From IMG/VR virus record IMGVR_UViG_2667527591_000023: a stretch of DNA of 34,158 nt. One strand, given 5' to 3'. The position numbers and the translations under genes were made by a program. Under the pieces are notes generated by a model, which saw only the letters and a program-made list of their open reading frames with translations, had not been told where the DNA came from and did no database searches. Below, one piece after another: positions 8,444-10,221 of this stretch. Within the stretch, counting starts at the first letter, position 1. Each line of letters starts with the position of its first letter. This stretch comes from a virus. Taxonomy: Duplodnaviria; Heunggongvirae; Uroviricota; Caudoviricetes.

Positions 8444-9499
8444 TCAGTCGTTGCGCTTGTCTTCTGTCAGTCCCAGCGTGTACGGCTCAAAGCGGATCAC
8501 TTCTTCTCCAAGCCAGTCGTTAAGCTCCTGCAGTCGCTTCTGCAGCGGCATCAGCTCGTTGCGGACAAAGACGCGGCTGGCCTTTTCCACATCACCAAAG
8601 CCGCCGGTATTGTTGGGAATAATGCCCATCATCTGCGGCGGTACGCGGTGCGCTGCCATCATGTCATCGCGGCTCACGTTCTTGATGTTCAGAAACTCAT
8701 CCTTTGCCGCAACCTCCGATAACGGGATGATCTGGATGCCGTCCTTTTTACCGTTGGGTGAGTACATAAACAGGTTACGGAAGTTGCCCGGCCCTTTGGC
8801 GCTTTTCATTGCCTGGCGGATATTGTTCACGTCCTCCTGATTCTGTGCTGCGTCGGTCATGTACATGATGAAACCCGCATGGCTGCCGTTGATGTAATAC
8901 TTCCGGCGGAACAGCGTTGCGGACTCGTTGAGCAGGGTTGACGGGATGGCGGAGAGATAGCCGGGCAGCCCGTAAATCTCCTGGTTAATATCCGGCTCCA
9001 GCAGATGAAAGATGTTGCCCTGCGTAAATTCATAGGGCTGCGTGGTCAGGCCATACTGCACAAACCAGTAGGTGTCGAGGTCCACGCCACGGCGTGTGTA
9101 CTTCGCCAGTGCTGGCTCCAGTGAGAGAACGCCGCCGAGCCGGTTGGTGCGCTTTTCCAGATAGGCGTTACCGAACACCAGATAGTCCTGTACGAAACGG
9201 GCAAAAGCCTGCTGGCTGAGCAGGCGGTGCGGGATGTAGGTACTGCTGAGAATGTCACGCTTAACGGCAATCGGTGAGCTGTGATGCACGGCGGCGCGAT
9301 AGGTCCGCGCCAGTCCGTCAAAGCTCACCGGCGGCTCATACCAGCGGTCCATCTGCACGCATTCCACGTAGTCCAGCAATTCGCGTCGGTCTAACACCGG
9401 CACCGGGTCGCCAAAGCTAAACGCCTCTGCCGCAGCGCCGCCAGATTCTGCGTTGTGATCCACCGCTGCGCGGTTGTTCTTGTTTTTACGTTTGCTCAT
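8444..9499 (-). CDS. Q: Portal protein (P2 gpQ family), 351 aa
   Basis: Size and position next to terminase; GGAG RBS; start overlaps upstream stop (ATGA). Confidence 0.9.
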   Translation of the reverse strand: MSKRKNKNNRAAVDHNAESGGAAAEAFSFGDPVPVLDRRELLDYVECVQMDRWYEPPVSFDGLARTYRAAVHHSSPIAVKRDILSSTYIPHRLLSQQAFARFVQDYLVFGNAYLEKRTNRLGGVLSLEPALAKYTRRGVDLDTYWFVQYGLTTQPYEFTQGNIFHLLEPDINQEIYGLPGYLSAIPSTLLNESATLFRRKYYINGSHAGFIMYMTDAAQNQEDVNNIRQAMKSAKGPGNFRNLFMYSPNGKKDGIQIIPLSEVAAKDEFLNIKNVSRDDMMAAHRVPPQMMGIIPNNTGGFGDVEKASRVFVRNELMPLQKRLQELNDWLGEEVIRFEPYTLGLTEDKRND

Positions 9500-10221
9500 G
9501 CCGCCTGCTCCTTGTCAGCCTGGGGCCATTCGCACATAAACAGCATTTTCCAGTCCTCCGGTGATAATTCTTTTTTCATGTCATTCAGCCATTCATCATC
9601 AAAGAGCGCGGCTCCGGTTGCGAGCGTAGCCCCGGATGCTGCAGCGTCATCAGCGGTAAAGGTCATGCAGGTAGTGCTGTTGCGGGCGATCAGATTCTTG
9701 TATTCCTGCCATGCTTCCGGGCTGGGGCTTGGGGTGGTGTAGTAGGTAGCGTGATAGCGCGCGTGCATGGACAGGCTTTTGGCGAGCGCAATCATATTTT
9801 TGGGGGAGTCAGCCCAGGCATACTCTGACACGTAGACGTTTCCATGGAGCGCGGCGGCGAGACTTTCCGGCCCGATAAAATAAATGACCGCACCGTTTGG
9901 GAGTTCCAGATGCGCTTTACCTGATTTTATTTTCCCAAGATGCGTCCAGGCTGCTGCCTCACTTAAAAAAGCTGATATATAGGTTTTGACGGTCAGGGCT
10001 GATGCCGGGGTGCAGCCCAGAAAAATCTGGTTGCGTCCGGTGTGCAGTGCATCGTTCAGGGCTTCGTAGGCGAAAAAGAAATCCGCGCCAGCCTGACGCA
10101 TTTTTGTAAGCACGCGGTTTCTGCTGCGTGCGCCACTGTTCCATTCATGCTGGTAAGCAAAGAAAGGGCGATCTACAGGCAGGCTGGCGGTGGTCATGAG
10201 GTTAGTTGGGGTTGAGTGCAT
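9496..10221 (-). CDS. Terminase large-subunit ATPase-domain paralogue (241 aa) inserted between P and Q; lacks gpP N-terminal region and C-terminal nuclease domain
   Basis: Aligns to central gpP blocks: [41 protein letters not shown] / [38 protein letters not shown] / LPNGATLYFLG, YYTTPS / YFSTPS, MLFMCEW / LLMCEF. GGAG RBS; start overlaps P stop (TGATG), stop overlaps Q start (ATGA). Confidence 0.85.
   Translation of the reverse strand: [241 protein letters not shown]

Follow-up and report, generated by a model that had tools for sequence, protein, structure and literature searches.

A predicted stand-alone terminase ATPase domain of the coliphage 186 gpW family lies between the terminase and portal genes of a P2-like prophage

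In phage P2, the portal gene Q (187–1221) and the large terminase gene P (1221–2993) are directly adjacent. Coliphage 186 contains a 248-aa open reading frame (ORF; 1215–1961) between Orf12 and Orf2, the homologues of P2 P and Q, respectively. The product is designated 'W protein' in GenBank U32222, with the note 'similar to Orf12' (AAC34147.1), and is labeled 'terminase large subunit' in RefSeq; in U32222, the gene label W spans the portal ORF as well. The annotation of a gene intervening between P and Q dates back to the deposition of the 186 genome in the 1990s. A literature search retrieved no paper discussing the gene between P and Q, and no published molecular function was found for 186 W. 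Here, we describe an ORF at this position, denoted as X, in a stretch of 34,158 nucleotides from the IMG/VR virus record IMGVR_UViG_2667527591_000023 (hereafter, the window). X is almost certainly a functional late gene that encodes a divergent (~32% identity) member of the 186 gpW family, i.e., a stand-alone copy of the gpP ATPase domain devoid of the helix-turn-helix (HTH) and nuclease regions. The gene would be a cassette placed precisely between those for gpP and the portal, with transcription driven by the activator-dependent late P promoter and translational coupling to both neighbors.

A sequence-only reading of the window had proposed that a 241-aa ORF, coupled in translation to the genes on either side, encodes an ATPase-domain-only paralogue of gpP. 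The ORF and its boundaries were reproduced (Table 1). The gpP stop and the X start have one base in common (GTGGAGATTTTCTGATGCAC), and the X stop is located inside the gpQ start (AAGGAGCAGGCGGCATGAGC). A Shine-Dalgarno sequence (GGAG/AGGAG) lies 8 nt upstream of each of the X and gpQ start codons, and the overlap type of the X/Q junction is identical in 14 of the 14 loci checked. These features agree with the proposed coupling on both sides. A P–X fusion produced by programmed frameshifting was considered and rejected: the sequence preceding the junction contains no conserved slippery heptamer and differs among the window, enteropathogenic Escherichia coli (EPEC), P2, and 186. The proposed paralogy also survived formal alignment. 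A BLASTP comparison with the gpP of the window aligned residues 21–232 of X with residues 145–368 of gpP, at 33% identity (E 1e-34). Terminase_6N (1.2e-14) is the sole Pfam match in X, which also matches PHROG 3746 (3e-93). The gpP protein comprises Terminase_5 (the N-terminal HTH), Terminase_6N, and Terminase_6C (the nuclease), of which the first and the last were not found in X by Pfam, and X ends at the ATPase domain. NCBIfam contains no model for either X or 186 W.

The AlphaFold2 model of X, built from a 21-sequence alignment, has a predicted local distance difference test (pLDDT) score of 82.3 and a predicted template modeling (pTM) score of 0.81, with disorder confined to residues 1–18. 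The best Foldseek match of this model in the PDB is the ATPase domain of T4 gp17 (E 5.7e-8). The large terminases of D6E, P74-26, Sf6, and HK97 were also matched, and the template modeling (TM) values of the matches are 0.65–0.69. A family-profile sequence search of the PDB yielded no match at E ≤ 0.01, and the fold search alone succeeded. X is thus predicted to adopt the complete fold of a large-terminase ATPase domain, an additional strand, conserved glutamate (ASCE) ATPase fold in which the Walker A Lys, the catalytic Glu, the Q motif, and the C motif are present. Since X lacks the nuclease and the HTH region and bears non-canonical Walker residues, it is not a terminase.

The closest annotated counterpart of X is found in 186 (tblastn against the W ORF, E 1e-21). 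Both X and 186 W are stand-alone proteins homologous to the ATPase domain alone of the adjacent P homologue, and both genes are flanked by the P and Q homologues, with stop/start overlaps at the junctions; the 186 junctions, TAATG and ATGA, are of the same kind as those in the window. The two proteins are ~32% identical. They differ in their catalytic motifs, as 186 W retains the canonical KSRQIGAT and LDE sequences where X has KMRQAGAD and VSE. Furthermore, W and a Yersinia branch retain part of a ~20-residue segment that X lacks. In tblastn searches with X, the matches at ~31% identity in 186, PSP3 (gp2), SW9, SI22, EtG, and Midge correspond to the W-type ORF and not to the P homologue, and Yersinia phage vB_YenM_56.17 also exhibits the P–X–Q arrangement. 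The novelty implied by the sequence-only reading was therefore not borne out: the same arrangement is annotated in 186, and occurs in PSP3, SW9, EtG, Midge, and vB_YenM_56.17 as well.

A word-indexed search of 5.8 billion proteins returned 55 clusters matching X, with lengths of 225–254 aa and identities of 34–98%, from Citrobacter, Salmonella, Escherichia, Klebsiella, Leclercia, Pantoea, Phytobacter, Yersinia, Limnobaculum, and Buttiauxella. Source databases, the NCBI annotation pipeline among them, name these proteins 'terminase large subunit domain-containing protein' or 'terminase family protein'. The corresponding search with 186 W returned its own subfamily of 245–249 aa proteins in Enterobacter, Edwardsiella, Hafnia, and Pectobacterium. 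This search also recovered the Yersinia proteins of the X search, which bridge the two sets with identities of 43–46% to W and 37–39% to X. A neighbor-joining tree based on 222 shared columns splits the sequences into two groups, one with all the stand-alone proteins (186 W among them) and the other with every gpP; this split was recovered in 100 of 100 bootstraps. Considering the identical position in 186, the bridging Yersinia sequences, and the split from gpP in the tree, X is almost certainly a divergent member of the 186 gpW family.

The active-site motifs of X were located by alignment with gpP (Table 1). The gpP proteins carry KSRQIGAT as Walker A, [LV]DE as Walker B with the catalytic Glu (LYLDE in the gpP of the window), and STPS as the C motif. 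The functional name of the Q motif (FAYQ) follows T4 gp17. Within the window subfamily, represented by the 21-sequence alignment, the invariant positions are Gln24, Lys40, Arg42, Gln43, Gly45, Ala46, Asp47, Glu133, and those of the C motif. Asp replaces the Walker A Thr throughout, and the Walker B Asp is replaced by Ser or, in a few members, by Gly, Ala, or Leu. The 186-W subfamily retains both the Walker A Thr and the Walker B Asp. Among 82 close-family clusters, Thr or Asp in Walker A covaries with Asp or non-Asp in Walker B, with zero mixed states. This covariation is not perfect in the exhaustive set, obtained by a profile search of 1.84 billion representatives, where a few clusters combine Ser or Thr in Walker A with a missing Walker B Asp. 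Asp is never found in Walker A and Walker B together, the exhaustive set included. The loss of a trans-acting arginine finger was also considered as a distinguishing feature of X and rejected: the candidate Arg residues of gpP (in the NARTAQ loop and GRNQ) are not invariant, and P2 and 186 have Asn and His there.

The contrast between full-length and stand-alone proteins is pronounced in these motifs. All 57 of the 57 full-length gpP-type terminases possess canonical catalytic motifs. Of the 49 complete stand-alone clusters, 17 are canonical, 20 display the state of the window (Walker A Asp and Walker B non-Asp), and 12 are degenerate. In the degenerate clusters, which make up a quarter of the wider family, one or more of three residues (the Walker A Lys, the Walker B Asp, and the catalytic Glu) are gone; at least two members (loci L028 and L030) are nevertheless still located between P and Q. 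Since the stand-alone copies lose catalytic residues and the full-length proteins keep all of them, we infer that the function common to the family is of a binding type, resting on the fold and its surfaces rather than on ATP hydrolysis. The window subfamily may retain a constrained, rearranged nucleotide/metal site, with which ATP binding would be possible. The 'ATPase core' of the sequence-only reading accordingly stands with regard to the fold and needs a qualifier with regard to the chemistry: in a subfamily with Asp in place of the Walker A Thr and without the Walker B Asp, the core is probably non-catalytic. The invariance of the nucleotide-site residues, and the covariation among the 82 close-family clusters, which resembles a compensated metal site, would also suit an independent enzyme, i.e., a working ATPase with a rearranged metal site that performs a separate ATP-dependent step, such as prohead or portal remodeling or DNA handling. 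We regard this as very improbable. The Walker A Asp might just as well occupy or obstruct the site, and the 12 degenerate clusters, including the two that preserve the P–X–Q order, speak against a catalytic role.

Within P–X–Q, no sigma-70-like promoter or intrinsic terminator scored above chance. Downstream of Q, a terminator-like hairpin followed by a T run was read directly from the sequence (Table 1); an automatic terminator scan overlooked it, its loop being longer than 8 nt. The terminators tQ of P2 and tW of 186 lie at the equivalent position, and the hairpin appears to end the P–X–Q operon. Upstream of P, the P–O intergenic region contains a TGT-N12-ACA element, a pattern of the kind recognized by the Ogr/B late activator. 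Such elements are no more frequent in the window than expected by chance, and this one is suggestive by its position alone; in P2 and 186, an activator-binding site is annotated in the corresponding P–O and orf12–V intergenic regions, respectively. The missing internal signals, the hairpin, and the position of the TGT-N12-ACA element are most simply read as placing X in the middle of a late, activator-dependent P operon. Further TGT-N12-ACA elements were noted at window positions 17942–17959 and 24062–24079, a short distance upstream of two tail-gene blocks (starting at 18006 and 24156, respectively). The two positions correspond to the V and F late promoters of P2, subject to the same overall count, which does not exceed chance.

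Table 1. Positions of gene X, its neighbors, its motifs, and other annotated features of the window.
Feature	Position	Strand	Basis
Gene X, 241-aa stand-alone paralogue of the large-terminase ATPase domain, 186 gpW family	9496..10221	-	ORF, BLASTP, Pfam, PHROG, fold, tree
gpP, full-length large terminase (HTH + ATPase + nuclease), 588 aa, first gene of the late P operon	10221..11987	-	Pfam, motifs
gpQ portal, last gene of the P–X–Q operon	8444..9499	-	Pfam Phage_portal, PHROG 68
P/X junction: GGAG, 8 nt, then TGATG (one base common to P stop and X start)	10217..10233	-	sequence
X/Q junction: AAGGAG, 8 nt, then ATGA (Q start overlaps X stop)	9496..9512	-	sequence
FAYQ, adenine-binding Q motif, kept	10150..10161	-	alignment
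Walker-A-like KMRQAGAD (gpP KSRQIGAT); Asp47 replaces the metal-binding Thr	10081..10104	-	alignment
Walker-B region NVYVSE (gpP NLYLDE); Asp lost (Ser132), catalytic Glu133 kept	9823..9840	-	alignment
YYTTPS, C (coupling) motif, kept	9727..9744	-	alignment
Terminator-like hairpin GCGCCCC-N11-GGGGCGC + T run, after Q	8371..8409	-	read directly from sequence
TGT-N12-ACA element in the P–O intergenic region, type of site bound by the Ogr/B late activator	12034..12051	+	sequence pattern
Integrase	1-1188	-	
CI repressor with CI_C domain	1428-2084	-	
CII/CP76	2402-2920		
DUF5347	3342-3683		
D12-class (Dam-like) adenine methyltransferase	4148-5065		
Replication gene gpA	5062-7476		
DinI-like ORF	7757-8062		Pfam DinI 1.3e-22
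ybjL-like permease, host DNA	31539-33224		
ybjM, host DNA	33494-33871		

The position of the gene is highly conserved. X lies between P and Q in every locus fetched from the X search, namely those of Yersinia hibernica, Pantoea ananatis, Limnobaculum, eight species-representative genomes, the Yersinia phages MLG42 and vB_YenM_56.17, and six E. coli genomes. With identities as low as 33%, the stand-alone gene is situated between P and Q in 16 of 17 distinct loci (the window, L001–L015, 186, L028, L030, and L029, with L003 and L005 repeating L002 and L004). Overlapping stop and start codons at both ends were observed in the 14 loci checked directly and in L030, while L028 has 9-nt spacers instead. 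In L021 (1297–2022), the X homologue of E. coli 873.10, the annotated start at Met9 leaves a 23-nt gap after P; since the sequence contains the overlapping TGATG start seen in the window, the annotated start is probably wrong. The X ORF is intact in all loci examined except one error-ridden record, L027 (Escherichia phage 500465-1, NC_049342.1). There, the X homologue and the portal gene are both fragmented, and the individual pieces carry gene annotations of their own ('terminase large subunit' and 'portal protein'). This pattern points to a defective prophage or to indel errors introduced during assembly. Phage 500465-1 was considered as a natural X knockout and set aside as uninformative, the portal gene being fragmented too. 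The gene is also carried by the plaque-forming phages 186, MLG42, and vB_YenM_56.17. The latter two are isolated phages (PMC11126057, PMC9224151), and neither report comments on the X-type gene of its phage.

The reading that we tentatively favor is that X serves as an optional, binding-based accessory of the phage's own DNA-packaging machinery. It is favored because the P–X–Q position is highly conserved, the expression of the three genes is coupled, and the 186 counterpart bears the designation W. X would be made in step with the terminase and the portal, bind through the surfaces of its ATPase domain to gpP and/or the portal vertex, and thereby modulate the assembly or activity of the packaging motor, acting neither as a second motor nor as a nuclease. 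ATP binding may persist in the window subfamily, where the site is invariant and an acidic residue has shifted to Walker A from Walker B. Since many family members are without catalytic residues, hydrolysis is probably not what the protein is for. W has been described as a conditional-lethal head gene of 186, and its alleles may lie in ORF 1215–1961. The sequence-only reading had offered a packaging modulator, a dominant negative, and a decoy as speculative roles, any of which may apply.

A number of observations weigh against a packaging role, and we gather them here. The apparent essentiality of 186 W may reflect polarity on the translationally coupled portal gene, because an amber mutation in W is expected to abolish coupled portal translation and the label W covers the portal ORF too. 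The statement of the sequence-only reading that Q and P adjoin each other in P2 proved correct, and P2 manages without X. By tblastn, gpP is accompanied by a second ATPase-domain match in ~20 of ~490 P2-like phage records (about 4–5%; 509 to 512 ATPase-domain places in 488 to 489 records). Hence, ~95% of these records are without the X family, which is dispensable for P2-type packaging, and many Eganvirus Yersinia phages have one ATPase-domain match alone. Complete E. coli genomes tell the same story: 1222 of them contain a close match to the 3′ end of the P gene of the window, and X is present in 21. In the other 1201, where the 3′ end of P is ~90–95% identical, P is joined directly to Q at the same TGATG. 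A stand-alone terminase-ATPase-like gene was also found away from the P–Q junction. This 222-aa gene (L029:4001–4669), with the degenerate motifs AARQIGVT and LLDN, resides between the lysis genes and gpR of a P2-like contig, which represents a second insertion site for such paralogues. Moreover, the gpP tree intermixes phages with and without X, and gives no sign of co-adaptation between X and P.

The X-less genomes further define the boundaries of the insertion. Their similarity to the window stops exactly at the P stop, and the GTGGAGATTTTxTGATG signal of the P/X junction then starts Q (EPEC E2348/69 and P2), the natural X-less junction reading …GTGGAGATTTTCTGATG-Q. X-type motifs were matched in 8 of 185,579 species-representative genomes. 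Since X is rare among the relatives, and the X-less P and Q genes join at the same signal, X is best described from these comparisons as an optional cassette inserted exactly between the coupling signals. The sequence-only reading had raised the possibility that the ORF is a standard, annotated component of most P2-like operons; it is indeed annotated, but occurs in a small minority of P2-like phages.

X evolves under constraints different from those on its neighbors. Using the Nei-Gojobori method on 11 related loci, the ratio of nonsynonymous to synonymous substitution rates (dN/dS) is 0.21 for X (44 pairs) and 0.05 for each of P and Q. X is under purifying selection, approximately four times weaker than that on P and Q. 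Together with the 100-of-100 bootstrap split from gpP, this agrees with the earlier suggestion that the duplication is old and kept under selection. The GC contents are roughly similar, as had been stated (54.0% for X, 56.1% for P, and 56.8% for Q), but the GC content at third codon positions (GC3) is clearly lower in X (59.5%) than in P (68.6%) and Q (72.7%). The low GC3, the relaxed selection relative to P and Q, and the fragmented gene of phage 500465-1 could be taken as marks of a functionless, decaying relic of a duplicated or recombined terminase gene. This explanation is hardly credible, as ORFs of 222–257 aa persist without disruption down to 33% identity, with invariant motif residues and conserved coupling signals. 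The dN/dS value already contradicts it, and the equally fragmented portal gene of 500465-1 points to sequence errors or a defective prophage.

The rate and the recombination of X likewise count against the packaging role. X diverges far faster than P, such that where P is 85% identical, X is 47% identical; where P is 62–69% identical, X is 36–39% identical, and the identities of P and X correlate with r = 0.75. In a comparison of the operon (window 8444–11987) with those of L020–L025, the synonymous divergence (dS) between the window and L023 is 0.21 for P, 0.76 for X, and 1.2 for Q. The discordant dS values indicate frequent recombination at the P|X boundary, with breakpoints at or near the gene junctions.

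The patchy, cassette-like distribution and fast evolution, with a dN/dS four times that of P and Q, the dispensability of X, and its free recombination relative to P are features that would suit a terminase mimic in immune conflict. In such a scheme, X copies the gpP ATPase domain and engages host sensors (Avs1–3 and Upx), either as a sponge or decoy that shields the terminase or as an anti-defence protein that some sensors detect. A precedent exists. Work published in 2026 demonstrated that T4 vs.8 and similar stand-alone terminase-ATPase paralogues engage Avs2, and that the ATPase domains of terminases suffice to activate EcAvs2 (PMC13601566). EcAvs2 uses a bridging ATP to contact both the Mg hydration shell and the ATP bound by the terminase, and the authors considered that non-terminase activators of Avs2 may be anti-defence proteins (PMC13601566). 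X fits this scheme in several respects: it is co-produced with the trigger gpP, its fold is kept while the catalytic residues are altered or lost in 32 of the 49 stand-alone clusters as opposed to 0 of the 57 full-length proteins, and the changes in the window subfamily fall exactly at the two Mg-ligand positions. On the other hand, the characterized mimics (vs.8 and Ksap1/2) activate rather than inhibit Avs2, so that an extra ATPase domain is possibly a liability. Neither X nor 186 W matches any PADLOC model, the adjacent hotspot holds no consistent partner gene, and the strict P–X–Q position is not demanded by the idea. We consider an immune role of this kind somewhat unlikely, though a close rival of the packaging role. 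A more specific version, in which the gpW/X family constitutes lineage-wide terminase pseudo-ATPase mimics that engage Avs1–3 and Upx in place of the real terminase, with the metal-ligand relocation altering the reading of the ATP/Mg face, would give P2-type phages their own equivalent of T4 vs.8, acting in anti-defence; we judge it unlikely.

The same fast evolution and patchy distribution, combined with an ATPase domain that lacks the nuclease and DNA-binding regions, a classic dominant-negative design, could also reflect interference with competitors. X would then join the terminase rings or occupy the portals of co-infecting P2-like phages or P4-type satellites, poisoning or diverting their packaging while sparing its own gpP. 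X resides in prophages, which meet related phages and satellites. However, as a gene of the late operon, X would be expressed only after induction or infection, leaving the lysogen unprotected. P2 and 186 gpP are nearly identical in the ATPase domain, with X absent from the former and its homologue present in the latter, and it is hard to picture how the own terminase would be spared. A satellite-related signal was absent from every locus examined. We assign this explanation a low probability. The accessory role in packaging remains our tentative preference, and part of the probability is given to none of these readings.

The rest of the window is a P2-like prophage with 186-type regulation (Table 1). 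Since the right end of the window is host DNA (ybjL and ybjM), the attachment site is placed between about 31020 and 31540. The end of the D12 methyltransferase gene overlaps the start of gpA, and the pair looks translationally coupled. The variable region between gpA and the portal gene (7528–8062) contains solely the DinI-like ORF and an overlapping 96-aa ORF with no family match, and neither ORF matches PADLOC. The same hotspot elsewhere carries SEFIR (L022), TIR (L027), DUF1493/DUF8209 with an N6_N4 methyltransferase (L004), an exonuclease (L007), or small ORFs. A partner gene of X was sought in this hotspot beside Q, and the idea was rejected, because the cargo is different in every locus and shows no association with X.

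These findings bear on annotation, in which such proteins should be described as gpW-type ATPase-only paralogues and not as 'terminase large subunit' or a second terminase. The family is uncharacterized, fairly diverse (at least 49 clusters at 50% identity), terminase-derived, and located in the packaging operon of the model phage 186. It thus offers a genetically tractable system (186 and MLG42) for asking whether such a gene tunes packaging or evades immunity, and the paired change of the Walker A Thr to Asp with the loss of the Walker B Asp provides a concrete biochemical lead. We believe that the link of the window subfamily to 186 W is new, along with the size and diversity of the family, the contrast in catalytic motifs between full-length and stand-alone proteins, and the fixed relocation of the acidic residue.

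Among the known systems other than 186 W, the gpP-type large terminases (P2 gpP and 186 Orf12) have in common with X the ATPase fold, the Q motif, the Lys, Arg, Gln, and Gly residues of Walker A, GRNQ, the catalytic Glu, and the C motif. Unlike gpP, X lacks the Terminase_5 HTH N-terminus, the nuclease, and the GTNxxTAQS loop, and a deletion has shortened its ATPase domain by ~44 residues toward the C-terminal end. T4 vs.8 and X are both phage-encoded, stand-alone paralogues of the ATPase domain of their own large terminase, each in one phage lineage. The activation of Avs2 has been shown for vs.8. In contrast to X, vs.8 possesses canonical Walker A and B motifs and is encoded in the vs/regB/denV region, not beside the terminase and portal genes. 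A comparison of the X-family profile with the vs.8 sequence detected no homology (hhalign probability 0.2%), and tblastn of X against the phage collection gave matches in P2-like phages alone. From these comparisons, the resemblance between vs.8 and X is convergent, with independent origins. Degenerate ATPase-like subunits that partner an active paralogue, such as the clamp-loader delta-prime subunit, provide a further parallel. Both delta-prime and X are P-loop ATPase paralogues in which the fold is kept while the catalytic residues drift, and, by analogy only, X might similarly form a complex with gpP.

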